IMG/VR virus record: IMGVR_UViG_3300036846_000555
Location: 58,350-122,349 of that record
DNA: 64,000 nucleotides
Strand: one strand, 5' to 3'
From: a virus
Shown here piece by piece: positions 19,876 through 44,558 of this stretch; position 1 is the stretch's first letter, and each line of letters begins with the position of its first letter. The notes beneath the pieces were generated by a model. It saw nothing but the letters and a program-made list of their open reading frames with translations. It was not told the origin of the DNA and ran no database searches. Position numbers and translations under genes: made by a program.

Positions 19876-20098
19876 CCGCGTCGACGGCTCCCGCTTCTGC
19901 GCAGGCCACCGCGAGCTGTTCGCGTCCATCGCGACCGAGATCGACGACGGCCGCGACGCGCGCCGCCGGTCGCCCGAGCGCCGCCGCCGCACCCTGTTCA
20001 AGGAGTGCGACTGGGCAGGCTGCCCCGAGTGCGCCGCGCCGCGCGAGTCCTACTGCGCATACCACGTGAGGGTGCTGAGCGGTGCCTCTGCGACTTGA
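19844..20098 (+). CDS. Small Cys/His-rich protein
   Basis: Two CxxxxC...CxxH units; overlaps both terminase genes. Confidence 0.45.
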   Translation: MRCSSPRCPLDRVDGSRFCAGHRELFASIATEIDDGRDARRRSPERRRRTLFKECDWAGCPECAAPRESYCAYHVRVLSGASAT

Positions 20099-21839
20099 CC
20101 CGCGCGAGCACTTCGGGCTGACCGTCTCCGACGCGTTCCTGGACGCGCTGGAGTCAGACATCGCCGCGCATGAGCAGCGCCGCGCCAGCTTTCTGCAGTG
20201 GGCGATCAAGGTCCCCGAGACCCGCGGCCCACTGAACTTCGACCGCTGGCCGTTCCAGCGCGAGCTGTACGAGCAGGGGTTCGACGACAAGGAGGTCGTC
20301 GTCATGAAGGCCACGCAGCTCGGGATCTCCGCGTGGCTGGTCCGGTGGGCGCTGTGCTGGGCCGACATGCACGCTGCCCGCGTCCTGTACATCTTCCCCC
20401 GCGAGCGCCAGCTCCTGGACTTCTCTGACGGCCGCATCAAGCCGCTTATCTTGGGTGAGTACCTGAGGACTCGTGTGCCTGCCGCGTCGGTGCAGAACAA
20501 GACGCTGAAGTCCGTCGGCCTGGGGATCATCTACTTCCGCGGCTCCGAGGCCGAGGCCGGGCTGGAGTCGATTGACGCCGACGCGCTGTGCCTCGACGAG
20601 CACGACCTCCTGGTGCAGGCGCACATCCCGATCGCCGAGCGCCGCGTCGGCGGCCAGGACTCGCTCGGGCTGATCCGCCGGATCGGCTTCCCGACCATCA
20701 GCGACCACGGCATCCACAAGGAGTACAAGAAGACCGACCAGCGCGAGTGGACCGTCCGCTGCGAGTTCTGCGGCGAATGGCAGTCGCTGACGTGGGCTGA
20801 CAACGTCGACGTCGAGCGCGAGATCCGCGTGTGCCGCAAGTGCCGCAAGCCGCTCGACGTCGCCACCGGCGAGTGGGTCGCGACGCACCCGGACCGCAGC
20901 ACCCGCGGCTACCACATCACCAAGCTGATCCTGCCGCGCCCCGAGATCGTCAGCACGCTCGTCGCCGCCTCCCGCGAGCAGGTGGCCTACCAGCGCCAGA
21001 TCTTCTTCAACCGCGATCTCGGTGAGCCGTGGGAGGCCGAGGGCGCCCGGCTGACCCCCGCGATGATCGCCGCGGCGCAGCGCGGCTACGCGCAGCTCAC
21101 TGCCTACACCGGCACCAACCCGGTGATCATGGGCGTCGACGTCGCGTCGGTTCGCGCGCTGAACGTGTGGGTGACCGAGCAGGTGTCAGAGACGCAAGGC
21201 CGCGTCCTGTACCTCGGCCTGGTCGACAGCTTCGACGAGCTGGCCAAGCTCATGGACCGCTTCCGGGTGGTCATGGCCGGGATCGACCACCTGCCCGAGA
21301 ACCGGCTGGCGCAGGCGTTCGCGAACCGCTTCGCCGGACGGGTGTACATCATCAGCTACGGCACCGAGACTCAGCGCGACGTGCTCAGCGTCGACGATCA
21401 GCAGCGGCGCGCGTCGGTCCGGCGCACCGAGGCCATCGACGCCGCGCAGGAGCGCGTCCGCGCGCAGCGCGAGTATCTGCCGCAGGATCTCCCGACCGGG
21501 TTCGTGGAGCAGATGTGCGCCAACGTCCGCTCCGTCGAGCGCAACGACGTCGGCCGCGTCCAGGTGCGCTACCGCGCCGACGGCCCGGACGACTGGATGC
21601 AGGCGCTCACCTACGCCATCGTCGCGAACGAGTGCTGGTGGATCCGCCAGCAGGTTGATCACGAGGAGATCACCTCCATCGACGAGATGACCGAGCTGGG
21701 GTTCGAACGCTCGACGCTGCGCGACCCCGACTCGATGGAGTACTCGCCGGGCCGGTCCGATGGCGACTACCAGCTCCACGACGGCCAGGTCAACGGGAAC
21801 GGGTACGGGTACGACGATGGCTACGGCTGGGACGAATAG
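20082..21839 (+). CDS. Terminase large subunit, lambda GpA-like
   Basis: VVVMKATQLGIS, LCLDEHD, GFPT, CEFC/CRKC Zn ribbon, FNRDLGEPW, nuclease MGVDV. Confidence 0.9.
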   Translation: MPLRLDPREHFGLTVSDAFLDALESDIAAHEQRRASFLQWAIKVPETRGPLNFDRWPFQRELYEQGFDDKEVVVMKATQLGISAWLVRWALCWADMHAARVLYIFPRERQLLDFSDGRIKPLILGEYLRTRVPAASVQNKTLKSVGLGIIYFRGSEAEAGLESIDADALCLDEHDLLVQAHIPIAERRVGGQDSLGLIRRIGFPTISDHGIHKEYKKTDQREWTVRCEFCGEWQSLTWADNVDVEREIRVCRKCRKPLDVATGEWVATHPDRSTRGYHITKLILPRPEIVSTLVAASREQVAYQRQIFFNRDLGEPWEAEGARLTPAMIAAAQRGYAQLTAYTGTNPVIMGVDVASVRALNVWVTEQVSETQGRVLYLGLVDSFDELAKLMDRFRVVMAGIDHLPENRLAQAFANRFAGRVYIISYGTETQRDVLSVDDQQRRASVRRTEAIDAAQERVRAQREYLPQDLPTGFVEQMCANVRSVERNDVGRVQVRYRADGPDDWMQALTYAIVANECWWIRQQVDHEEITSIDEMTELGFERSTLRDPDSMEYSPGRSDGDYQLHDGQVNGNGYGYDDGYGWDE

Positions 21840-29820: not shown

Positions 29821-30161
29821 GCCTGTCCTTCACCACGAGCCGCGACGGCGCCCGGCGAGCAACGGTCCGGCTCGACCACCGAGTCGGCCTGGAGCAGCTC
29901 GCGACGGCAGCGGCGCTGGCGCTGGACGAGGGCTACCTGGAGGGCGAGGATCTCGACGCGCGCGCGGCCCGCCTGACCAGGCGCGACATCGAGCGAGAGC
30001 TGCGCGACCGACTGCAGGCCGGTGGCGACGACGGCTTCCTGTTCGTCGGCGAGCGCAGCTTCATGGGCTACGAGCTGTTCGACGAGACCGTCGCAGGCGC
30101 CTGCCGTGCCCGCGTGCTGGCGCTGTGGCCCGAGCTGACCCCGACCGAGGAGACGACATGA
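29817..30161 (+). CDS. Hypothetical protein
   Basis: ATGA coupling. Confidence 0.6.
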   Translation: MSLSFTTSRDGARRATVRLDHRVGLEQLATAAALALDEGYLEGEDLDARAARLTRRDIERELRDRLQAGGDDGFLFVGERSFMGYELFDETVAGACRARVLALWPELTPTEETT

Positions 30162-30772
30162 CCATGACCACCACCGAGACACCACGCATCTGGATCGCCG
30201 ACCTGGCCGCCTACAACAACGGCGTGCTGCACGGCCGGTGGGTTGACGCCACCGACGCCGCCGAGCTGACCGAGGCCAAGGACCAGATCCTCGCCTCCAG
30301 CCCCGAGCCCGGCGCGGAGGAGTGGGCCATCCACGACTACGACGGCTTCGGCAGCGACCTGACCTACAAGCTCGGCGAGTACGCCAGCTTCGACACGATC
30401 GCGAAGCTCGGCGCGCTGATCGAGGAGTACGGCGACGAGTTCCTCGCCTACGTCTCCGCGGTCGAGCCCGCCCCCGAGGACATTGACGAGCGCAGCTTCC
30501 AGGAGGCCCGCCGCGGCGCCTGGGACAGCGAGGCCGACTGGGCCCGCGACCGCGTCGAGAGCCTCGGCTACGAGGGCGTCCAGCCCGGCGAGTACGTCCC
30601 CAAGGACGACCGCGGCTGGAGCAGCAGCGACGGCGCGATCGACGTGATCGACCTGCTGCTGAATCACCTTGACCTGGACATGGTCGCGCGCGACTGCAGC
30701 GCCAACGGCGAGGTGGACTTCGCGACCGTCAACGGCACCGTTTACGCCTTCGACCCGAACGCGGGTAGGTGA
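30158..30772 (+). CDS. ardA: ArdA antirestriction protein (type I RM DNA mimic)
   Basis: RIWIADLAAYNNGVLHGRWVD...EEWAIHDYDGF...LGEY; highly acidic. Confidence 0.9.
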   Translation: MTMTTTETPRIWIADLAAYNNGVLHGRWVDATDAAELTEAKDQILASSPEPGAEEWAIHDYDGFGSDLTYKLGEYASFDTIAKLGALIEEYGDEFLAYVSAVEPAPEDIDERSFQEARRGAWDSEADWARDRVESLGYEGVQPGEYVPKDDRGWSSSDGAIDVIDLLLNHLDLDMVARDCSANGEVDFATVNGTVYAFDPNAGR

Positions 30773-34229: not shown

Positions 34230-37200
34230 GTGGCGGTCCCCGACCAGCAGGCACCACCGCAGACGCATCCGCAGGTTCAGCGCCTGCTCGACGCTGCGCA
34301 GACCGGCGCGACCATCGCCGCCGCCGGTCAGGTCACGAAGGCGGCGACCGTCGGTCCGGGAATCGCGGTCGCGGCGCCAGCGGTCGCCGCGGGCAAGATC
34401 GTATCGGCGGCCGCCGAGCCGGTGGAGTTCGGCATCAAGGTCGCGCTCGCGCTCCGGATCCTGCGCCGCCTGTTCCGCGGCCACAAGATGGAGAGCGCGA
34501 GCTGGCTGGAGAACGAGCTGCGCCGCCGCTTCCCCGACGCCGACCCGGCCGTGATCCGCGCCGCGGTGCAACGCGAGATGACGTTCGAACAGGCGTTCCA
34601 ACGCAAGGCGCTGGCCCGCACCGAGACCGACATGCACGCCGCCGGGCAGCTCCCGACGCCGCGGGCGCGCGCCAAGCGTGCCGGGGAGATCATCGCCCGC
34701 GAGAAGCACTACAACGCGCTGCGCGAAAAGGCGCTGCTGAACCGCGCGGTCGCGCATGTCGAGAACGCCGGGGTCAAGGCCGTCTCACCGCAGGGCGCGA
34801 AGTGGGTGCTCGGCCAGCGCAAGAACCACACGCTCGGGTGCCTGGCGCTGGCGGGCAAGAACTGGCCGTGGGAAGTGCTGGACATGATTCCGCCGCCGCT
34901 GCACACCGGCTGTGGCTGCAGCCTTGCGCCGCTGAAGCCGGGCGACACGGTGCCGCCGGTGGCGCAGGCGCTGCGCGCCGCGCAGGCCGCCATGGCGCTG
35001 GAGGAGGCTGTCCGCAGCGTCGCTGACGCCGGGGAGATCAACGCCTACCTGGACGGCTGGCCGGTCCGGCCGAGCGTCGAGCGCGCGCTCATGCAGCTCA
35101 CCGAGGCCGACTACAAAGAAGCGCTTCATCCCCGTGGCCGCGGTGGCCGCTGGGTGCAGATCCTGAACAAGATCAAGGCCGCGAAGATGGACGACATCAC
35201 CGACGTCGAGGGCCACAGCGTCATGCGGCTCAAGGACGAGGGCTACAGCGTCCGCGTCGGCGCCGGGAACCGGGTCAGGACGCACGATCCGGAGGTGGTC
35301 GCTGACGCGATCGTGAAGCATCTGGACGAGCGGGCGAAGCTGGGCACGCCGGTGACGCTGGCGAACATGGACGACAACTTCCAGAAGTGGTTCAGCCCGC
35401 AGAAGCTGGACGGCGGCAAGGAGACCCATCCGAAGTCCGGCTACGACGTGCATGTCGGCAAGTGGCTGTCGGTCAAGCAGCCCGAGCCCGACGTCGACGG
35501 CCCGCCGATCTTCAAGGTGACCGACTACGGCGCGCACGCTGGCGAGCAGATGTTCCCGACGGATGCCGGGACGCAGCCGATCCGGGAGCTGTACCGCGGC
35601 ATGAGCATCGACGAGTGGAACCAAGCCGTCGAACGTGGGTACATCCAGTCAGACCGGCGCGGCGTGATCGGAAGCTGGGAGGGCACGAACGCCGGGATCG
35701 ACCCGCAGACGTCGCAGTCCTACCTGCCGCGCGGCGCGGAGTCGGTGATCGCGAAGATCGCCGTGCGGCCCGAGGATGGGTGGTTCGCCCGCAACGAGGA
35801 CGGTTACCTGCGCACACGCAACCGGGTCCCGATGAGCCAGGTGACGGCCGTCTCGCCCGTCCTGTACAAGGATCCCGACGAGGGCCTGTTCGTGCGGTCT
35901 GACTCAACCTCGGCTGCTAAACTCACAAAGGAAGCTAATGGACAACGAACAGCTCAAACAAGAGGCGCTGCTGGGAGCGGTGGACGAGCACGGGGAGCCA
36001 ACCTGGTTTCACTCGCCTCGCTCGATGCGTCCACCGACGCCGGATACAAGCGCTACACCGACGCCGTCCGAGCCAACCCCCACTCCGAGTACGTCACCCA
36101 GCCGTCCCAAGCAGAGCTAGGCGCCAAGCGGGTCTGGCTCTCGGACGACGGTCAGACCGGCGTCACCGTCTCGGCGGACGGCGAGGTCGGGAACCTGTTC
36201 GCCAACAACGACCAGGGCGCCGGAGGCGCGGCGCTTGATCACGCCGTCGCGAACGGCGGCACGTGGCTGAACTGCTTCGACGGGGCGCTCCCGAAGATCT
36301 ACCAGCGCCACGGGTTCACCGAGGTCGCGCGCCTGAAGTTCGACCCGGAGCACAAGCCTGAGGGCTGGGACATGGCGAGCCTGGACTCGCCCGACGTCGT
36401 GTTCATGGGCCACGGCGGCGAGCCGGTGCATCCGGTGCCGACGTTCACCGACTGGGACACTGCCGAGCGCGCCGTGCTGGAGCACATCGGGGCGCTGCAG
36501 GAGGCGCACTGGACCGAGTGGCTGCACCCCCGCGGCCGGGGTGGTGTCTGGGTGGACGCGATCCACCACGAGATCAAGGAGCCCAAGGCCGAGAAGCCGC
36601 ACGCGGAGTTCACCGGCGAGGACTTCGCCCGGGCGATGGACGGCTTCACGCACGGCGGGATCACCGCGGTGCGCGCGAACCGCACCAGTGTCCAGAACCT
36701 GTACGGCGAGGTGTGGCTGAACCTGCAGAAGCAGGGCGAGATCCGGCCGGTCGGGCTGGCGCGCGTGATCGTCAAGCCGCCCAACCACCGCGGCGAGCGT
36801 GTCGCGGAGCTGGCGAACATCTACCTGCACGAGGACGAGCAGGAGCACGGCTTCGGCCGGGCGTTCACCGACTACTTCCTCAAGACGCTGCGCGACGGCG
36901 GCGTGGACAAGGTCAACGTCGAGGCCGTCTCCGTCGGCGGCTACGCGTGGGCCCGGCGCGGCTTTCAGTGGACGGCCGACAAGAAGGCCGAGCAGCAGCG
37001 GATCGTCGCCGACGCCAAGACCGACGGGCGCTGGGCGGAGATCGCCCGGCGCACACCACCGGCGGCGCTGGCCGAGTTCGAAGGCAAGATCGAGCGCGGA
37101 GAGTTCTCCTCCGAGGCGGAGCTGGCCGCCTACGGCATCGACCAGGGATGGCGCGAGTCTGACCCGGCGACCGGCGCGAGCACCGGCGCGCGGATGTGGC

Positions 37201-38036
37201 TCGGCAAGCAGCTCATGCTCGGCTCGCGCTGGAAGGGATCACGGCCGGTCACCGTCACGGCCAGCCTGCAGGAGGCGCTCGACGAGCTGGAGCTGAGCGA
37301 GCGCGCCGAGGAGATCCGCCTGCTGTGGGATCCGGCCAAGCACGCGCGAGGCTGGCACGGGCACTTCGCCGAGATGCTCAAGCAGCTCCCGAAACCAGGC
37401 CTGCGCGGCCGCGGCGGCGGGCGGATCGAGGTGACCGACGGCCACCGCGTCACCCGCACCCGCCACGGCTTTGAGGTCACGCATCCCAGCGGCCACACCG
37501 AGACGGTCGCGACGGCGGAGGAGGCCGCCACGATGGTCCACGACCGCTACGAGTCCGCGCGGATGGAGGCCGAGGTCAAGGCAGAGCTGGCCACCTCCGC
37601 GATCGAACGCGAGACACGCAAGCAGCGCGAGCGCGAGCAGCGCAAGGCCGAGATCGCCAGCCGCACCTTCTACCGCTTCGAACCACCCGAGATCGCCCGC
37701 AGGATCGCGGAGACCGGCGAGATCTGGGGACTGCCCGGCACGCAGGGCCGCGGCACCACGGAGGTCCGCGCTCTGCCGGGCCGCCCCGACGCGAGCCAGA
37801 TCGCGTACGAACGCAGCCACAACGGCCGGGTGGTGGTCGAGTTCCACACCAACGTCGCGCCGGACAACCCGTACGGCGAAACGCACTTCTCATGGTCGCC
37901 CGAATCGTCCGCGCAGCGTCGCAACGAGGAGTCCTCCGGCGTCGTCCACGAGCTGAAGTTCGAACCCGAGACGACCAAGTACGGGCACGTGCCGGTGGCG
38001 AAGCTGCACGTCCACCACGTCCACCCCGGTAACTAA
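34230..38036 (+). CDS. MuF-like head morphogenesis polyvalent protein (MuF + ART-like + 2 GNAT + C-terminal toxin-like domain; 3 HPR motifs)
   Basis: MuF motif W...NHTLGC...G...PPPLHTGCGC; LYRGMS..E; CFDGALPKIYQRHGF..PDVVFM; EQEHGFG..GGYAWARRGF. Confidence 0.8.
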   Translation: MAVPDQQAPPQTHPQVQRLLDAAQTGATIAAAGQVTKAATVGPGIAVAAPAVAAGKIVSAAAEPVEFGIKVALALRILRRLFRGHKMESASWLENELRRRFPDADPAVIRAAVQREMTFEQAFQRKALARTETDMHAAGQLPTPRARAKRAGEIIAREKHYNALREKALLNRAVAHVENAGVKAVSPQGAKWVLGQRKNHTLGCLALAGKNWPWEVLDMIPPPLHTGCGCSLAPLKPGDTVPPVAQALRAAQAAMALEEAVRSVADAGEINAYLDGWPVRPSVERALMQLTEADYKEALHPRGRGGRWVQILNKIKAAKMDDITDVEGHSVMRLKDEGYSVRVGAGNRVRTHDPEVVADAIVKHLDERAKLGTPVTLANMDDNFQKWFSPQKLDGGKETHPKSGYDVHVGKWLSVKQPEPDVDGPPIFKVTDYGAHAGEQMFPTDAGTQPIRELYRGMSIDEWNQAVERGYIQSDRRGVIGSWEGTNAGIDPQTSQSYLPRGAESVIAKIAVRPEDGWFARNEDGYLRTRNRVPMSQVTAVSPVLYKDPDEGLFVRSDSTSAAKLTKEANGQRTAQTRGAAGSGGRARGANLVSLASLDASTDAGYKRYTDAVRANPHSEYVTQPSQAELGAKRVWLSDDGQTGVTVSADGEVGNLFANNDQGAGGAALDHAVANGGTWLNCFDGALPKIYQRHGFTEVARLKFDPEHKPEGWDMASLDSPDVVFMGHGGEPVHPVPTFTDWDTAERAVLEHIGALQEAHWTEWLHPRGRGGVWVDAIHHEIKEPKAEKPHAEFTGEDFARAMDGFTHGGITAVRANRTSVQNLYGEVWLNLQKQGEIRPVGLARVIVKPPNHRGERVAELANIYLHEDEQEHGFGRAFTDYFLKTLRDGGVDKVNVEAVSVGGYAWARRGFQWTADKKAEQQRIVADAKTDGRWAEIARRTPPAALAEFEGKIERGEFSSEAELAAYGIDQGWRESDPATGASTGARMWLGKQLMLGSRWKGSRPVTVTASLQEALDELELSERAEEIRLLWDPAKHARGWHGHFAEMLKQLPKPGLRGRGGGRIEVTDGHRVTRTRHGFEVTHPSGHTETVATAEEAATMVHDRYESARMEAEVKAELATSAIERETRKQREREQRKAEIASRTFYRFEPPEIARRIAETGEIWGLPGTQGRGTTEVRALPGRPDASQIAYERSHNGRVVVEFHTNVAPDNPYGETHFSWSPESSAQRRNEESSGVVHELKFEPETTKYGHVPVAKLHVHHVHPGN

Positions 38037-38052
38037 CGTCGTGCGCTAGAAT
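38032..38052 (+). promoter_or_regulatory. Dyad-family promoter overlapping MuF stop
   Basis: ACTAACGTCGTGCGC-TAGAAT; ATG 9 nt downstream. Confidence 0.6.
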
Positions 38053-38060
38053 TGGGTGAA

Positions 38061-38408
38061 ATGGCCAAACCATGGACAAGCGACCCGAACGCACCGGCGG
38101 TGCCTGACGAGTTCTTCCAGATGCGCCAGGTGGCCGTCCTGCCGCTCGGACCGGACTGGTTTGAAGGCCAGGGCGTGGCGATGAAGGAGGAGGAGATCGA
38201 GGACAACTGGCCGCTGCTGTACGGCACGATCCGCACCGACGCCGGAACGTTCATCGTGGTCGGCACGCCCGGCGCCGACAGCGTCGAAGTGTGGGCGTCC
38301 CGAGACATGACGCCGCAGGAGGCCGCCGACGAGCTGGAGGCGACACTGGAGCACGGCGCCGAGTCGACCGTGTTCGACAGCGACGCCGGATACTGGGGCG
38401 GGTCCTGA
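38061..38408 (+). CDS. Acidic hypothetical protein, candidate immunity protein (probably leaderless)
   Basis: Directly after MuF C-terminal domain, own promoter, coupled to next gene. Confidence 0.6.
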   Translation: MAKPWTSDPNAPAVPDEFFQMRQVAVLPLGPDWFEGQGVAMKEEEIEDNWPLLYGTIRTDAGTFIVVGTPGADSVEVWASRDMTPQEAADELEATLEHGAESTVFDSDAGYWGGS

Positions 38409-41400
38409 TGGACTGGGCGACCGCGGCGGCGATTGTCGCCGACGGGATGCCGAGCCTGTCCGATCCGCCCGACGCGCCCGGCGACGACTACGAGTTCTGG
38501 CAGCGAGTCAAGGCGCTCGTTGACAGCAACGGCAACGGCGAGCTGAGCGAGGCGTACCTGGAGGATCTCCACCCCCGCGATCGCAGTGGTAAGTGGATGG
38601 AGAAGCTGGGGCTGTCGCATCTGCGCGAGGTCGGCGGAGCGCCCCGCGACGAGCTGATGGGCAGGACGCCGAAGGACATCGACTACGTCGCGGCCGAGAC
38701 GCCGGAGCGGATCAAGCAGGCAGTCGAGCAGGCAGGCGGAAAGGCCGAGGAGCTGATGGTCCGCGACCGGCTGGTCGGCGTCCGCGCCACGCATCCCGAC
38801 CTGCCGCCCGACGGCGTCGAGATCGTCCCGCCGCGCATCGAGCAGTCCACCGGCGCCAGCCGTCACGACTTCACCATCGTCCCGCACCCCGGCCTGGACG
38901 GCTCAGCCACACCCGAGCGGATGCTCGCCGACGACGCGCAGCGCCGCGACTTCACCGTCAACGCGCTGTACCGCGACCCCGTGACCGGCACGCTGACCGA
39001 CCCGACCGGCCGCGGTGAGCAGGACGCGCGCAACCGGGTGCTGCACATGGTCCACGACACCAGCTTCCAGGAGGATCCGCTGCGGATGCTGCGCGGCGCA
39101 CGGTTCGTCTCCCAGCACGGGCTGGAGCCCGACGCCGAGACGCTGGCGGCGATGCGCCGCGACTCCGGCGGTATGACCGCGCTGACCAACAAGGGCGTCT
39201 CCGGCACCGTCCAGACCGAGCTGGGCAAGCTGCTGATGGGCGACAGCCCGGGCAAGGCGCTGCGCGTCATGCGCGACACCGGAATGTTCCAGACGCTGCT
39301 GCCCGAGCTGGCGCCGATGGTCGGATTTGATCAACGTTCGCCCTACCACGAGCACGTGCTTGACGAGCACACGTTCAACGTCATCGACGAGCTGGCGCGG
39401 ATGGGCGCCAGCCACGACGCGCGGCTGGCGGCGCTGTTCCACGACTCGGGCAAGCCGCTGACCGCCAACCTCAAGCCGGGCACCGACACGTTCCGCTTCC
39501 ACTCCCACCCCGAGCACGGCGATCACGCCGACGTCGGCGCCGACATCGCGCGCAGCACCCTGAACCGCCTGAACTACCCGGCCGACACGATCAACCACGT
39601 CACCGGGCTCGTCCGCGATCACATGCTCACCGCCGTCGAGAAGCCGACGCCGGTCAAGGCGCGACGTCTGCGCGCCGCGCACTCCGACCGGTTCCTGACC
39701 GACCTGCTGGACCACAAGCAGGCCGACATGGAGGGCCATGGCGAAGCGATCGCCAAGAGCCTGGAGGGCGTCCACAAGCTACGCGGCCTGCTGGCCGAGA
39801 ACGCCACGGCGCCGCGGTCGCTCAAGGATCTGAACGTGACCGGCAGCGACCTGATCGCCAACGGCATGGAGCCCGGCCCGCGAATGGGCGCCGTGCTGCG
39901 CCAGCTCCTCACCGAGGTGGTGGTCGACCCGACCCTGAACCGCCACGAATGGCTGCTGCACCGCGCCGAACGCCTGGCGGCCACGCCGGTGCAGGAGGCC
40001 GAGCTGGAGGAGGCCAAGAGCATCTACGAGGAGGTGCTCCACCCCCGCGACAGGCTGGGCCGCTGGATGCTCAAGCGCGGCTACAACGTCCATTTCGAGC
40101 AGGCCGACAAGCCGTCGGCGACCCGCAAGAGCAAGACGATCACCGTCCGCGGGCCGACGCCCGAGCACCAGTACGACGCGCTGCTGAACGCCGGGGAGGG
40201 GCTCACCGGCGTCTTCCCGAAGGGCCCGCCGCGGCCGATCGAACGCGCCGCGATGGTCAACGCGGCCCGGCCGACACGCGTCGAGCAGCGGCTGCGGACC
40301 ATCGACAAGATCGCCACCCGCGCGCACGCGGGCCAGACCGACAAGTCCCAGCGCCCGTACATCGACCACGTCCACGCGGTCGCCGACTCGGTCGGGCCCG
40401 AGGCGCGTCCCGTTGCGCTGATGCACGACGCGCTGGAGGACACGCACCTCACCGAGCGCGACCTGGAGCCGGTCCTCAGCCCCGACGAGCTGGACGCGGT
40501 CAAGCTGCTGACCCGCCCGCACAGCCCCGACTACAACTACGACGACTACATCGACCGGATCGCCAACAAGACCGGCAAGGCCGGGGAGCTGGCGCGCGAG
40601 GTCAAGCGCGCCGACCTGCAGCACAACCTGGGGCGGCTCGGCAACCTGGACGCCAAGACGCAGGCGCGGCTGCGCCCCAAGTACGAGGACGCGCTCCGGC
40701 GCCTGGCGCGCACGCCGCACGTGTTCGAACAGGAGGGCGCGCCGGATAACCTCTCCGGGCTCAGCGCCGAGCAGGTCGAAGCCAACCTCCGCAGCTTCTA
40801 CCAGGGCAGCCTCAAGTCACCCGACCACCACACCGACCTGGCGTGGTACGACATCCAGCACGCCCTGATCGACAAGACGGCCAAGGAGCACGGCATCGAC
40901 CCGGTCACGTGGGCGGCGATGATCTCGGCGACGTCGCCGCAGCTCGCGTGGGACTTCACCACCAAGGCCGGGGTGTTCAAACGGCCGAACATGGACCTGG
41001 CCGAGAACGCGCTGCGGCTCGCGCGCCGCTACCCCGACGAGCCCGCGCCCAAGCTGGTCGACCGGCTGCTGAAGGCGTCGGAGGGCAAGAAGGGCCCGAG
41101 CGAGGTGGGCGGTCTCGGCGGGTCGGTCGAGAACGCGATCAGGATCTACCGCGGCGAGGATCCCGACAAGGTGCTCAACGCGCCGAAGACCCGCAGCTTC
41201 TACAACAACCTCGTCTGGCCCGAGCGCAGCACCACGGTCACCGTCGACGCGCACATGGCGCGCGCCGCGATGGGGATCGTCGAGAAGAAGGGCTACGCGC
41301 GCGCCGACAAGGCCATCGACGTCAAGGCCAAGGGCAGCGGCTACACGTGGGTGGCGGACATCGTCACCAAGCTCGCTGACGAGTACCACGTCCGGCCGCA

Positions 41401-41497
41401 CGAGATGCAGGCGGCCATCTGGATGGAGCGCAAACGCCAGTCCGACGCGCGCGAGGCTGCCGAGAAGGCCGCCAAGAAGGCAGCTAAAAGCGCATGA
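38408..41497 (+). CDS. Polyvalent protein: class II CCA-adding/poly(A)-type nucleotidyltransferase + HD, RelA/SpoT-type small alarmone hydrolase HD, C-terminal DUF7178-like domain; 2 HPR motifs
   Basis: VGGAPRD..G..PKDID, RRDFTVNA, EDPLRMLR, ALFHDSGKP; AHAGQTDK..PYIDH...MHDALED...VKRADLQHN; WY...SATSPQ...KTRSFYNN...VTVDAH. Confidence 0.88.
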   Translation: MDWATAAAIVADGMPSLSDPPDAPGDDYEFWQRVKALVDSNGNGELSEAYLEDLHPRDRSGKWMEKLGLSHLREVGGAPRDELMGRTPKDIDYVAAETPERIKQAVEQAGGKAEELMVRDRLVGVRATHPDLPPDGVEIVPPRIEQSTGASRHDFTIVPHPGLDGSATPERMLADDAQRRDFTVNALYRDPVTGTLTDPTGRGEQDARNRVLHMVHDTSFQEDPLRMLRGARFVSQHGLEPDAETLAAMRRDSGGMTALTNKGVSGTVQTELGKLLMGDSPGKALRVMRDTGMFQTLLPELAPMVGFDQRSPYHEHVLDEHTFNVIDELARMGASHDARLAALFHDSGKPLTANLKPGTDTFRFHSHPEHGDHADVGADIARSTLNRLNYPADTINHVTGLVRDHMLTAVEKPTPVKARRLRAAHSDRFLTDLLDHKQADMEGHGEAIAKSLEGVHKLRGLLAENATAPRSLKDLNVTGSDLIANGMEPGPRMGAVLRQLLTEVVVDPTLNRHEWLLHRAERLAATPVQEAELEEAKSIYEEVLHPRDRLGRWMLKRGYNVHFEQADKPSATRKSKTITVRGPTPEHQYDALLNAGEGLTGVFPKGPPRPIERAAMVNAARPTRVEQRLRTIDKIATRAHAGQTDKSQRPYIDHVHAVADSVGPEARPVALMHDALEDTHLTERDLEPVLSPDELDAVKLLTRPHSPDYNYDDYIDRIANKTGKAGELAREVKRADLQHNLGRLGNLDAKTQARLRPKYEDALRRLARTPHVFEQEGAPDNLSGLSAEQVEANLRSFYQGSLKSPDHHTDLAWYDIQHALIDKTAKEHGIDPVTWAAMISATSPQLAWDFTTKAGVFKRPNMDLAENALRLARRYPDEPAPKLVDRLLKASEGKKGPSEVGGLGGSVENAIRIYRGEDPDKVLNAPKTRSFYNNLVWPERSTTVTVDAHMARAAMGIVEKKGYARADKAIDVKAKGSGYTWVADIVTKLADEYHVRPHEMQAAIWMERKRQSDAREAAEKAAKKAAKSA

Positions 41498-41510
41498 TGT
41501 GTGCTACGAT
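41487..41510 (+). promoter_or_regulatory. Dyad promoter overlapping the stop of the CCA polyprotein
   Basis: AAAGCGCATGATGTGTGC-TACGAT. Confidence 0.7.
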
Positions 41511-41524
41511 ATGTGTGGAATGAC

Positions 41525-43651
41525 ATGATCGACCCGACACGACAGCCCCTCACCGTCGACGACGGCCCCCTTGACCTGGAGCCGCCGGACGACGAGCTGC
41601 AGGAGTGGGTGTCCGGCGGAGGTCTCGACGACGTCGTTGACGGTCTGATCGCCGCCAAGGACGTGCAAGAGGCCAGCTACGCCGAAGAGCTTCACCCCCG
41701 TGGCAGGGGTGGAAAGTGGATTCGCAAGCTCGGCGGGCCAGCGCGCGAGATGAGCGGAGACGAGTGGGCCGACTTCAAGGACAGGGCGCGCGCCGACCCG
41801 TTCTCTCACGTTCACCCCGGCGACGACGCCGACCCGATCGTCAACGCGCTGCACCAGATCGACAGCGGCTGGACGATGAAGATGTCCAAGAACCGCGACG
41901 AGCTGCCGACCGGCAGCCTGCCGTTCGGCGTCGAGGGCGTCACCCGCTTCGACAAGCAGGTCGGTCCCGGCGAGACGCCCGACTCGCTGGTGCTCCACAT
42001 GCGCCAGAAGGAAGGCGGCGGGCTGGAGGTCATCAACGCGGGCCACGGGTCGATGGTCTGGGACCACATGATCGCCACGCCCGAGATGCGCGCTGACGAG
42101 GAGCGAGTGTGGAAAGAGGGCCAGGCCCAGATCGCGGCCCAGCAGGCCGAGCGCGAACGCGAACGCGACGAGCAGGGACGCAAACAGGCTCAGACCATCG
42201 CCGCGATCGGACCGGCGGTCACCAGCGGCAACACCGAGGCGCTGCGCGCCGCACTGGGAGGCCACAGCATGAGCGGGGCTGTCGGGCTCCTGGCCGCCGC
42301 CGGACTTCAGCATCGCGAGCGTCTCACCGACGCGAACGAGAAGAGCCAGATCGACATCCTTCGCGGCGAGCATGGTGAGACCGTGAAGATCGTGGGTCGG
42401 GCGCCGGAGAAGGACTGGTTCAAGGAGATGGAGGACACGGTCGACCAGGCGCTGGACCCCAACGGGCAGATCGACGACCGCCTCGTCACGCAGGCAGCGA
42501 CCGCGCTCCGTCCCGAGGGCGACCGGCGCCCCGACGATCCGGAGGGAGCGGCAGCGTGGCGCGCCCGGCGCGACGCGCTCGTCCAGCGGCTGGCATCCCA
42601 GCACTACACCTGGGTCGGCCGGGCCGAATCGCCCCAGGCCTACCCTGACGTCGGCCTGTGGGCCACCCTGCAAGGCGAGGACGGCAACCAGTACTGGGTG
42701 GACTGGGGCGGCAACCTGCAATCGGCCACCAAGCATGCGCAGGGCGACTCCGAGGCCGTCGGGGACCGAGCCGTGATCCGCGGGCGACGCGACGACCGGC
42801 GGCTGACAGAGGAGCAGAGGCGCGGAGGCGTCACCGATGTGCGGATCACGCCCAACCCGCAGGGCGGCAACCGCACCCGGCTACCGGACGGCCAGGCCCC
42901 GAAGACCGTCGGTGAGCTGCTGATCGACACGCTCGGCCGCGCCGACGAGCTGGGACGGAAGTACGACACGGGCGTCAGCGTGCAGGCCGTCGTCCACGAC
43001 GTCGTTCCCGACGGTTCCGCAGCCGTCCACGAATGGAACGGCACGATCTCGATCGACGAGCGCTACCTCGATGACATCAAGAAGTACCTGGACACCCGCG
43101 CGCTCGTGGCCAAGCACGCCGAGCACGGCATATCGCCGATCAGCGACCGGGAGCACCTGGACTTCTACAACGCCCTGGAGATCCTGCAGCACGAGATCAA
43201 CCACGGCGTCGGCGTCAACGGCGGCATCGACACCAAGAACTACCAGGGGCTCGGCAAGAACGTCGAAGAGGGGCTCACCGAGGAGACCGCGCGCCTGGAC
43301 GTCGCCGACTGGCTGCGCTCCTACGGCATGACCGACGTGCTCGCCGCGGTCAAACGCAACCCGGACGATTGGCGCGTTCAGGGCACCTACTTCGACTACC
43401 GCACGCAGCTCAAGAAGCTCATGGACGACGCGGGCCTGAACGACGAGCAGCGGCGAGCGAAGCTCCGCCAGATGAAGTTCCAGATGACCCCGAACCAGCA
43501 GTACGCGGAGATCATCCGGCTGGCGCAGGTCAAGCGGCCGAACGTCACCGACCTCGGTGCTGCGCTGCCGTCGCCCGGCCTGCCCGCCCGGCTGGAGTTC
43601 CAGCCGGTGGTCAACCCCGACCTGTCCGACATCCGCGAGGAGGTGAGGTAA
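41525..43651 (+). CDS. Polyvalent protein with HPR motif and C-terminal zincin metallopeptidase
   Basis: VQEASYAEELHPRGRGGKW; ILQHEINHG...VEEGLTE; start could be 41513-41525. Confidence 0.75.
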   Translation: MIDPTRQPLTVDDGPLDLEPPDDELQEWVSGGGLDDVVDGLIAAKDVQEASYAEELHPRGRGGKWIRKLGGPAREMSGDEWADFKDRARADPFSHVHPGDDADPIVNALHQIDSGWTMKMSKNRDELPTGSLPFGVEGVTRFDKQVGPGETPDSLVLHMRQKEGGGLEVINAGHGSMVWDHMIATPEMRADEERVWKEGQAQIAAQQAERERERDEQGRKQAQTIAAIGPAVTSGNTEALRAALGGHSMSGAVGLLAAAGLQHRERLTDANEKSQIDILRGEHGETVKIVGRAPEKDWFKEMEDTVDQALDPNGQIDDRLVTQAATALRPEGDRRPDDPEGAAAWRARRDALVQRLASQHYTWVGRAESPQAYPDVGLWATLQGEDGNQYWVDWGGNLQSATKHAQGDSEAVGDRAVIRGRRDDRRLTEEQRRGGVTDVRITPNPQGGNRTRLPDGQAPKTVGELLIDTLGRADELGRKYDTGVSVQAVVHDVVPDGSAAVHEWNGTISIDERYLDDIKKYLDTRALVAKHAEHGISPISDREHLDFYNALEILQHEINHGVGVNGGIDTKNYQGLGKNVEEGLTEETARLDVADWLRSYGMTDVLAAVKRNPDDWRVQGTYFDYRTQLKKLMDDAGLNDEQRRAKLRQMKFQMTPNQQYAEIIRLAQVKRPNVTDLGAALPSPGLPARLEFQPVVNPDLSDIREEVR

Positions 43652-43925: not shown

Positions 43926-44558
43926 GTGCCAGACGTGAGCTTGAACGGGCGCCTGACCGCCAGCGAGCTGTCGCCGATCGCGGGCGGCGTGCTCGCCCAC
44001 GACGCCGCCGCCGCGTGGAACGCCATGAACGTCGAATGCCGACGCAACGGCGTCGAGCTGCGCCCCAACGGATCGAAGTCCAGCTACCGCACCTACGCCC
44101 AGCAGCAGGAGCTGTGGAACCTGTACGTGTCCGGACGCGGCAGCCTCGCCGCGCACCCCGGCACGTCGAACCACGGCTGGGGTCTGGCCGTCGACCTCGC
44201 CACGCACGAGATGCGCGCAATGCTCGACCGCGTCGGCGACAAGTACGGCTGGAGCAAGCGCACGTCAGACGCCCAGTCGGAGTGGTGGCACATCGCCTGG
44301 CGCACCGGCTCATGGCGCGGACCCGACCCCGGACCGTATGGTCCCAGCACACCACCCCCCACACCCCTACCAGAAGGAGCCGCGATGGCGGATCTCGTCG
44401 CCGTCCTCAAAGACAACAAGGCCATCGAACTGTTCGTGATGGACAAGAACGGCACCGTCTGGCACGCCTGGCAGACCGCCCCAAACGGCGGCTGGGCGGG
44501 CGCCCAAGCGGGCAAACGCAACGCCGCCTGGTACTCGCTGGGCGCGCCGGGCAAATGA
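43926..44558 (+). CDS. Endolysin 1: M15 (VanY-like) Zn peptidase + C-terminal lectin-blade module
   Basis: SYRTYAQQ...AAHPGTSNHGWGLAVD...EWWHI; Pro linker; 57-aa module. Confidence 0.88.
   Translation: MPDVSLNGRLTASELSPIAGGVLAHDAAAAWNAMNVECRRNGVELRPNGSKSSYRTYAQQQELWNLYVSGRGSLAAHPGTSNHGWGLAVDLATHEMRAMLDRVGDKYGWSKRTSDAQSEWWHIAWRTGSWRGPDPGPYGPSTPPPTPLPEGAAMADLVAVLKDNKAIELFVMDKNGTVWHAWQTAPNGGWAGAQAGKRNAAWYSLGAPGK

Follow-up and report, generated by a model that had tools for sequence, protein, structure and literature searches.

The locus described here raises the question of how a phage might load several unrelated enzymes into its head as a few long chains and later set them free as separate proteins. 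It lies in IMGVR_UViG_3300036846_000555, a single viral record of 122,349 bp (68.7% GC, estimated 99% complete), the second half of which (genome 58350-122349), a stretch of 64,000 nucleotides, is called the window; positions are those of the window unless marked as genome positions. Along with their DNA, phages are known to bring proteins into the host, and the polyvalent proteins are believed to be among this cargo. To our knowledge, the choice, cutting, and release of cargo have been worked out in detail only in T4 and a few other model phages. Just past the portal gene of the window, three open reading frames (ORFs) free of stops (34230-38036, 1268 amino acids (aa); 38291-41497; and 41501-43651, 716 aa) encode cargo proteins 1 to 3, in which an [LIVM]-x-E motif followed by a short tag built around His-Pro-Arg (HPR) forms six junctions. 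The reading favoured here, held with moderate confidence, is that these are three head-associated polyvalent cargo proteins, which would be cut at [LIVM]-x-E by the phage's own prohead protease, with the tag kept on the freed modules. Because the modules are divided by a probable head-protease site plus tag, the enzymes are probably cut apart inside the virus head and then delivered to the host.

All six predicted junction motifs were located in the translated ORFs at their expected positions (Table 1). The tag has the consensus x-[YWF]-x-E-x-L-H-P-R-x-R-x-G-x-[WF], and one register (L-x-E-A, x-[YW]-x-E-x-L, HPR) is common to four junctions. The Glu-to-His spacing amounts to 7-8 residues for four junctions and to 10 for the fifth (counted from LEEA); for the third, which is a degenerate copy of a WDPAK-HPRGRGG tag subtype that recurs in other phages, it is 23. 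Eight [LVIM]xEA sites occur in the 3,052 residues of the three proteins, where about 5 are expected from composition, and 7 of the 8 lie no more than 25 residues upstream of an HPR motif. At this density (0.0026 per residue), the probability that all six 25-residue spans are hit is about 1e-7. The clustering of these sites before HPR motifs exceeds chance. The start of cargo protein 2 is most likely ATG 38408, because relatives have a stop just 5' of the same MDWATAAA start. It was also considered that the three ORFs might be one gene broken by errors; this was rejected, as the protein 2 start is conserved and relatives have a stop just upstream.

The junctions are kept in related phages. In 17 loci with portals 68-91% identical to this one, 36 tags were counted downstream of the portal, nearly all of them with [LMIV]-x-E at positions -10 to -8. 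Across 33 aligned junctions, the Glu is invariant, as are the His, Pro, Arg, Arg, and Gly of the tag, and the residue after Glu may be A, S, V, G, N, M, or I. The original prediction had expected E-A to be conserved before HPR motifs in homologues; this is true of the Glu and not of the Ala, and the conserved feature is [LIVM]-x-E. The proteins of the relatives were then split at their tags, and the pieces were compared with those of the window. The cargo that follows junction 1 comprises 466 aa here and in relative L005; L004 and L009 have two pieces there, of 276 and 221 aa, L007 has 456 aa, and L008, L012, and L017 have 712-775 aa. Where the cargo differs between relatives, only the 20-30-residue junction can be aligned. 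Since the cargo between junctions is exchanged while only the junction of about 25 residues stays alignable, the junctions are, on this comparison, real module boundaries at which cargo is swapped exactly. Some domain boundaries have no junction, as an HD hydrolase-like domain and DUF7178 share one module.

The original prediction also expected a prohead protease outside the window, and a candidate was found there, a predicted protease-scaffold fusion whose modelled N-terminal domain has the fold of T4 gp21. The domain model (predicted local distance difference test (pLDDT) 92) was compared with 48,161 PDB representatives; T4 gp21 (5jbl_A) came first (Z 9.6, root-mean-square deviation 3.1, 125/165 residues aligned), followed by the proteases of varicella-zoster virus (Z 7.3) and human cytomegalovirus (5.5). 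No other chain reached a Z of 5, and all three that did are capsid maturation proteases. With the full-length model, gp21 was again first (Z 8.3). The C-terminal half is long, helical, acidic, and scaffold-like. In 48 sequences with identities down to 26%, Y82, H103, S172, and D203 do not vary; they include the candidate catalytic Ser and His. Neither Pfam nor PHROG matched the protein, nor did any PDB sequence; PDB searches by sequence with the protease, the capsid protein, and protein 1 yielded nothing useful. Nothing in the genome matched Pfam S77 or S78 at E up to 1. Since it lacks S77/S78 membership despite its modelled gp21/assemblin fold, the fusion is therefore assigned to a new, separate family with this fold. 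The family has at least 402 relatives and no Pfam model, which makes it a gap in current annotation.

The L-x-E motif is also conserved in capsid, scaffold, and protease, at positions typical of head-protease action. The consensus of the T4 prohead protease is an L/I-x-E type motif. The prohead proteases of T4, phiKZ, 201phi2-1, and SPN3US all cut after Glu, propeptides of gp21-type substrates often carry several sites, and the proteases trim themselves (PMC5694885). In an alignment of 40 protease-scaffold sequences, L16 and E18 are invariant within L-E-L-R-E-[A/S]. Three further motifs are nearly invariant: A-L-M-E-[A/S], which closes the protease domain, A-L-Q-E-A, with which the scaffold helix begins, and L-x-E-[A/S] (435-438). 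The capsid protein, whose true start is MNGNPYG, carries L-L-E/A (the slash marks the putative scissile bond) and L-E-E/A, the latter coinciding exactly with the start of the Pfam capsid model. Both capsid sites are kept in five relatives (46-72% capsid identity) as [LI]-x-E-A and [LVI]-x-E-[A/T], despite altered residues and indels between them. The portal N-terminus, for which LQEA had been noted from the letters, does contain LQE/A (aa 8-11) and also LLE/A (aa 28-31), and these are mostly conserved in 16 relatives. By comparison, L-x-E behaves like the site of the phage's own prohead protease. The proposed cleavage at E/A is thus consistent with the protease fold and the motif shared with capsid and scaffold, with the amendment that the site is [LIVM]-x-E.

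The junctions could also be processed by the zincin-like metallopeptidase of protein 3, in the head or after injection, with the head protease not involved. Protein 3 contains an HEINH motif, the Atlas structural neighbours of its module include MuF-fused, M78/ImmA, and ArdC-linked peptidase clusters (TM score 0.58, from a low-confidence Atlas model with mean pLDDT 0.58), and Iyer et al. predict peptidase processing of polyvalent proteins (PMC5512222). Set against this, the same junctions occur in the closest complete relative (125 kb, with terminal repeats and a portal 91% identical), where BLAST gave no match to the zincin region, and G004 (89% complete) is also without this region. Processing by the zincin would in addition fail to account for L-x-E in capsid and scaffold, and it is judged very improbable.

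The separability of site and tag was also followed, in this phage and in others. A seventh full tag is found near the front of a peptidoglycan-binding protein encoded outside the window (genome 20166-21596), which has a Gly/Pro/Ala-rich start, FEQL-HPRGRGGKW at aa 22-34, and then three peptidoglycan-binding domains. No L-x-E precedes this tag, so the claim that [LV]-x-E-A stands before every HPR motif applies to the six in the window and fails for the seventh. A similar head of low complexity plus tag opens several polyvalent proteins of other phages. A tblastn search with the 27-aa tag returned five records only and led to Gordonia phage GodonK, where gp67 directly follows the portal and has an N-terminal tag with no L-x-E before it. 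In relative L005, L-Q-E remains at the end of a conserved leader, and 25 residues are inserted between it and the tag.

A tag profile built without the L-x-E columns was searched against 1.84 billion protein representatives and gave at least 178 matches at E up to 0.001. From these, 149 proteins with 308 tags were retrieved, in which [LIVM]-x-E stood at -6 to -12 before 169/267 internal tags compared with 14/41 N-terminal tags. In 30 proteins of diverse phages with at least three internal tags, L-x-E preceded 61% of the internal tags against a background of 12% in the same proteins, and its presence was all-or-none in 17 proteins (6.4 expected, 0/10,000 shuffles). In phages whose protease is 34-50% identical to the candidate, [LV]-x-E-[A/S/G/N/V] stands before most internal tags. 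A different pattern is seen in L043, a 77.5-kb high-GC IMG/VR contig with 12 HPRDE-x-G-x-W tags over several adjacent ORFs in the stretch examined. Most of these tags follow V-x-K-x-[YF]-D-E (V-x-K-x-Y-D-E-S-E-HPRDE) and not L-x-E, and a homologue of the protease-scaffold protein was not found in this record, which is 76% complete. P0233, a polyvalent protein without the L-x-E type, lies on an 18-kb fragment. Pfam S78 was not found in L043, GodonK, or this fragment, and PHROG scans of the L043 neighbour genes were of no help. P0185, an L-x-E-type polyvalent protein of another lineage, was not found in IMG/VR. On these sequence patterns, L-x-E is not simply part of the tag, and the pattern upstream of the tag appears to co-vary with the protease in the expected direction, over few independent lineages. 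No model in Pfam, PHROG, or NCBIfam covers the tag, and no published description of it was found in the searchable literature, nor in Iyer et al. 2017 or Jamet et al. 2017. A degenerate tag without His-Pro (DIFNRRIL-RGRGGRF-AGSLGG) was also seen after GLQE/T near the N-terminus of a 937-aa protein outside the window (L001:10672-13485) that has a Zeta-toxin-like kinase domain (PF06414, 3e-22).

Several points weigh against cleavage of the cargo by the head protease. The assignment of the protease comes from its modelled fold; beside the missing S77 and S78 matches, hhalign gave no match between the protease family and the T4 gp21 sequence (probability 0.1), and Foldseek against the PDB gave no significant match with the full-length or the domain model. 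The weak Foldseek rows for the domain model included five herpesvirus proteases and gp21, many of them near the top. The portal and cargo block lies about 50 kb away from the protease and capsid block, the phage and all its close relatives are uncultured and known from genes alone, and negative lineages are few, with the 77-kb record only 76% complete. Finally, L-x-E stands in exactly this register before about a third of the tags in diverse phages, in a sample drawn with a profile built from this clade, and a fixed register of L-x-E-A would also fit a helix that simply accompanies the tag.

This last point leads to an explanation in which L-x-E-A forms the N-terminal end of a longer tag or linker helix that is never cut, and the proteins are packaged or act intact. 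The register is indeed fixed in most junctions, and N4 virion RNA polymerase is packaged unprocessed (PMC5512222), so large virion proteins can enter the head uncut. An uncut helix fits less well with an invariant Glu followed by a variable residue, and with a spacing that can stretch to 10-23 residues. The motif is also absent before N-terminal tags such as those of the peptidoglycan-binding protein and gp67, separable from the tag in L005, and all-or-none per protein; moreover, its conservation extends to the capsid, scaffold, and protease proteins, which have no tag. Taken with these observations, an uncut helix is considered unlikely.

Under cleavage by the head protease, each cargo protein would consist of interchangeable enzyme modules in a row, and a junction of two parts would stand at the head of each module. 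Protein 1 would enter the prohead by means of its conserved portal-adjacent N-terminal unit, and proteins 2 and 3 perhaps by means of leaders that end in L-x-E. The leader of protein 2 (MDWATAAA...D-D-x-x-F-W-x-x-V) is conserved in L004, L005, L007, and L013 and ends in L-x-E, and it is therefore a candidate removable propeptide. Inside the prohead, the first part of each junction, [LIVM]-x-E, would be cut after Glu by the gp21/assemblin-fold protease-scaffold fusion. The second part, the tag, follows about 5-6 residues later; as it comes after the putative cut, it would stay at the new N-terminus of the released module. The pieces ejected into the host would then include a CCA-adding/HD tRNA repair enzyme, an alarmone-hydrolase-like HD domain, acetyltransferase-like domains, and a zincin.

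This scheme resembles the internal proteins of T4, in which one short peptide is common to diverse cargo, and capsid, scaffold, and cargo are all substrates (PMC5694885; PMC3012670). T4 gp21 cuts after Glu (PMC5694885), and the protease here is modelled with the same fold, although it has no sequence similarity to gp21 and several cargos are strung in one chain here. The T4 capsid targeting sequence differs from the HPR tag in position. It is reported to be an N-terminal propeptide of 10-20 residues that lies upstream of the cut and is discarded (Mullaney and Black 1996, via PMC5694885), whereas the HPR tag is downstream of the putative cut in 6/6 junctions and would be kept. The leaders of proteins 2 and 3 appear to fit the T4-type propeptide position better than the tag does. 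In the giant phages phiKZ, 201phi2-1, and SPN3US, many head-packaged ejection proteins are likewise cut after Glu (S/A/G-x-E) by a gp21-type protease (PMC5694885); there, the P3 residue is small and not Leu, no common tag after the cut is described, and the genomes and hosts are different.

The closest architectural parallel is found in the polyvalent proteins (Iyer, Burroughs, Anand, de Souza, Aravind 2017, PMC5512222), which also combine unrelated enzyme domains in one chain beside head or portal genes, show mosaic shuffling, and include a zincin peptidase. Their packaging, processing, and injection are predicted in that work. The present locus has the same two features, with several unrelated domains per chain (CCA nucleotidyltransferase, HD, HD_4-like, and DUF7178 in protein 2; two acetyltransferase-like regions in protein 1) and cargo encoded beside the portal, a virion head gene. 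It differs in that no HPR motif or reiterated junction is mentioned by Iyer et al. (0 occurrences), and in that processing is assigned there to in-chain zincin peptidases or a fused assemblin-like domain (PMC5512222), while the evidence here points to a separate head protease of the gp21 fold and to a defined junction made of site and tag. MuF-fused polymorphic toxins (Jamet et al. 2017, PMC5576092) similarly consist of a portal-adjacent head protein with variable C-terminal effector domains, but no junction motif or cleavage is described for them, and they carry one toxin in place of several modules.

The role of the tag itself is the weakest step of this explanation. The original prediction proposed that the tag alone may direct packaging; this is not supported, as proteins 2 and 3 have L-x-E-ended leaders, the former conserved, that could be the targeting signals, and the genome has a second L-x-E-flanked helix motif. 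The proposed role of the tag as an anchor in the head or a licence for ejection is likewise conjectural. The second motif, (S)TEFVRARARE..L-x-E, occurs at genome 21400-22100, where the peptidoglycan-binding protein has it at its C-terminus and the two small ORFs that follow have it at their N-termini. It is flanked by L-x-E sites, and a similar RARERVLRARL-x-E helix stands directly before tags in polyvalent proteins of other phages. The motif may be the real targeting element. The HPR tag is conserved across phages with unrelated capsids and proteases and would survive the cut; a common ligand or step is therefore favoured over a co-evolving head protein. It more likely serves the retention or exit of freed cargo through something common, such as packaged DNA, than through a lineage-specific head protein. 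A bolder version, regarded as rather unlikely, is that the tag is a portable address label of very different tailed phages, which ties freed cargo to something present in all heads and carries it out along with the genome; DNA, bound through the basic PRGRGG core, would be the most likely candidate.

The tag might instead have nothing to do with the virion and be a nucleic-acid- or host-factor-binding peptide on early takeover enzymes, with the position beside the portal incidental. The PRGRGG core, judged from its sequence, resembles nucleic-acid-binding peptides in being basic and rich in glycine, tags also stand at the front of proteins encoded far from the head genes, and the cargo enzymes would be useful early in infection. 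This is improbable given that tagged proteins directly follow the portal both in this clade and in GodonK, that the junctions contain a head-protease-like site, and that Iyer et al. tie the architecture to head packaging (PMC5512222); head packaging and DNA binding are, besides, compatible.

Under the head-cleavage reading, the locus gives a readable grammar in which an anchor or leader is followed by a repeated series of protease site, tag, and enzyme. It supplies a candidate protease, precise putative scissile bonds, and named candidate catalytic residues, which makes the model testable with few constructs. Very different phages carry the tag. Should it serve as an address label, chosen proteins could be loaded into phage heads, and the tag would flag injected effectors in sequence data. 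If it is also portable, any protein with a lineage-matched cut site plus the tag could be loaded and injected.

Table 1. Features of the cargo locus and associated head genes (window positions unless marked as genome; aa positions are those of the respective protein; a slash marks the putative scissile bond)
Feature	Position	Strand	Remarks
Prohead protease-scaffold fusion (predicted), 501 aa	genome 31721-33226 (outside window)		upstream of decoration and capsid genes
Large terminase	20082-21839		
Portal protein, 682 aa	32143-34191	+	phrog_10963 portal, E 2e-28
Conserved N-terminal unit of protein 1, aa 1-289	34230-35096	+	candidate MuF-like anchor; HTGCGC at aa 225
Junction 1	35097-35153	+	LTE/A-DYKEAL-HPRGRGGRW; LTEA 35097, His 35127
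Cargo module 1, aa 309-755	35154-36494	+	second half acetyltransferase-like (aa 618-704); phrog_2563, E 2.5e-13
Junction 2	36495-36551	+	LQE/A-HWTEWL-HPRGRGGVW; LQEA 36495, His 36525
Cargo module 2, aa 775-1012	36552-37265	+	weak GNAT match PF00583, E 0.0027, below curated cut-off, aa 829-897
Junction 3, degenerate	37266-37367	+	LQE/A (37266), 21 residues, WDPAK-HARGWHGHF; His 37341
Cargo module 3, aa 1047-1268, then stop codon	37368-38036	+	common to L005 only
Small ORF, 118 aa	38052-38408	+	GC content at third codon positions 0.87; its TGA overlaps the protein 2 ATG (TGATG)
Leader of cargo protein 2	38408-38542	+	MDWATAAA...DDYEFWQRVKALV..., ends at L-S-E; candidate propeptide
Junction 4	38543-38596	+	LSE/A-YLEDL-HPRDRSGKW; LSEA 38543, His 38570
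Cargo module 4: CCA-adding tRNA nucleotidyltransferase with HD domain	38597-39988	+	PF01743 9.4e-19, PF01966, PF12627, PF13735
Junction 5, two sites	39989-40066	+	VQE/A 39989 and LEE/A 40004, then KSIYEEVL-HPRDRLGRW; His 40040
Cargo module 5: RelA/SpoT-type HD hydrolase-like and DUF7178, then stop codon	40067-41497	+	phrog_990 4.7e-28
Leader of cargo protein 3	41501-41662	+	start GTG 41501 or ATG 41525; ends at V-Q-E
Junction 6	41663-41719	+	VQE/A-SYAEEL-HPRGRGGKW; VQEA 41663, His 41693
Cargo module 6: uncharacterised region and zincin-like metallopeptidase (putative), then stop codon	41720-43651	+	HEINH aa 564 (nucleotide 43190)

The modules listed in Table 1 differ in how well their functions can be assigned. 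The N-terminal unit is the sole part of protein 1 found in all relatives (47-84% identity). Its H-x-G-C-x-C motif and its position after the portal are suggestive of MuF, and one MuF-rich Atlas cluster appeared at 0.89, rank 14, a weak lead; Pfam PF04233 (MuF) was matched nowhere in the genome, and no MuF PHROG was matched. In module 1, the first half has a YRG motif at aa 455 and no function assigned by its matches, and tblastn matches to the module are phage genes annotated as acetyltransferase or minor capsid protein. This module is common to L005 only, and other relatives have different cargo at this place. The support for the acetyltransferase-like parts of protein 1 is weak to moderate by sequence matching. 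Module 3 has no family match in Pfam, PHROG, or NCBIfam, nor was any family match found for the 118-aa ORF between proteins 1 and 2, which is apparently missing in relative L004.

The predicted CCA-adding enzyme and HD domains were confirmed by Pfam, PHROG, and NCBIfam matches, with module 4 also matching phrog_2244 (1.1e-52) and TIGR02692 (2.4e-40, below the equivalog cut-off). Module 5 is likely a RelA/SpoT-type HD hydrolase, as suggested by RelA/SpoT models at 1e-5 and a weak match to PF13328, beside PF23802 (3.9e-20). Module 6 has no Pfam, PHROG, or NCBIfam match, and the putative zincin of protein 3 is based on HExxH plus the structural lead. An outside gene call puts the start of protein 3 at residue 9. 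Among the domain labels of the original prediction, CCA and HD were thus retained, and ART and 'toxin-like' were not verified.

The record belongs to a contractile-tailed phage, with a tail sheath, a head decoration protein, and a PF25209 capsid protein encoded outside the window. Megablast of the locus against phages revealed no close cultured relatives, tblastn with protein 1 matched acetyltransferase-like pieces only, and tblastn with the protease gave two remote matches only. The relatives are IMG/VR contigs of 105-134 kb, one of them with terminal repeats. Cargo protein 1 begins 39 nucleotides past the portal gene, and the same arrangement is seen in 17 relatives. Between the terminase and the portal lie about 10 kb of small genes, one of them for an anti-restriction-type protein (phrog_2059, 30125-30772). 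Just past cargo protein 3, at 43926-44558, a VanY-type D-Ala-D-Ala carboxypeptidase-like protein is encoded (PF02557, 1.3e-12), which also matches part of tape-measure and endolysin PHROGs.

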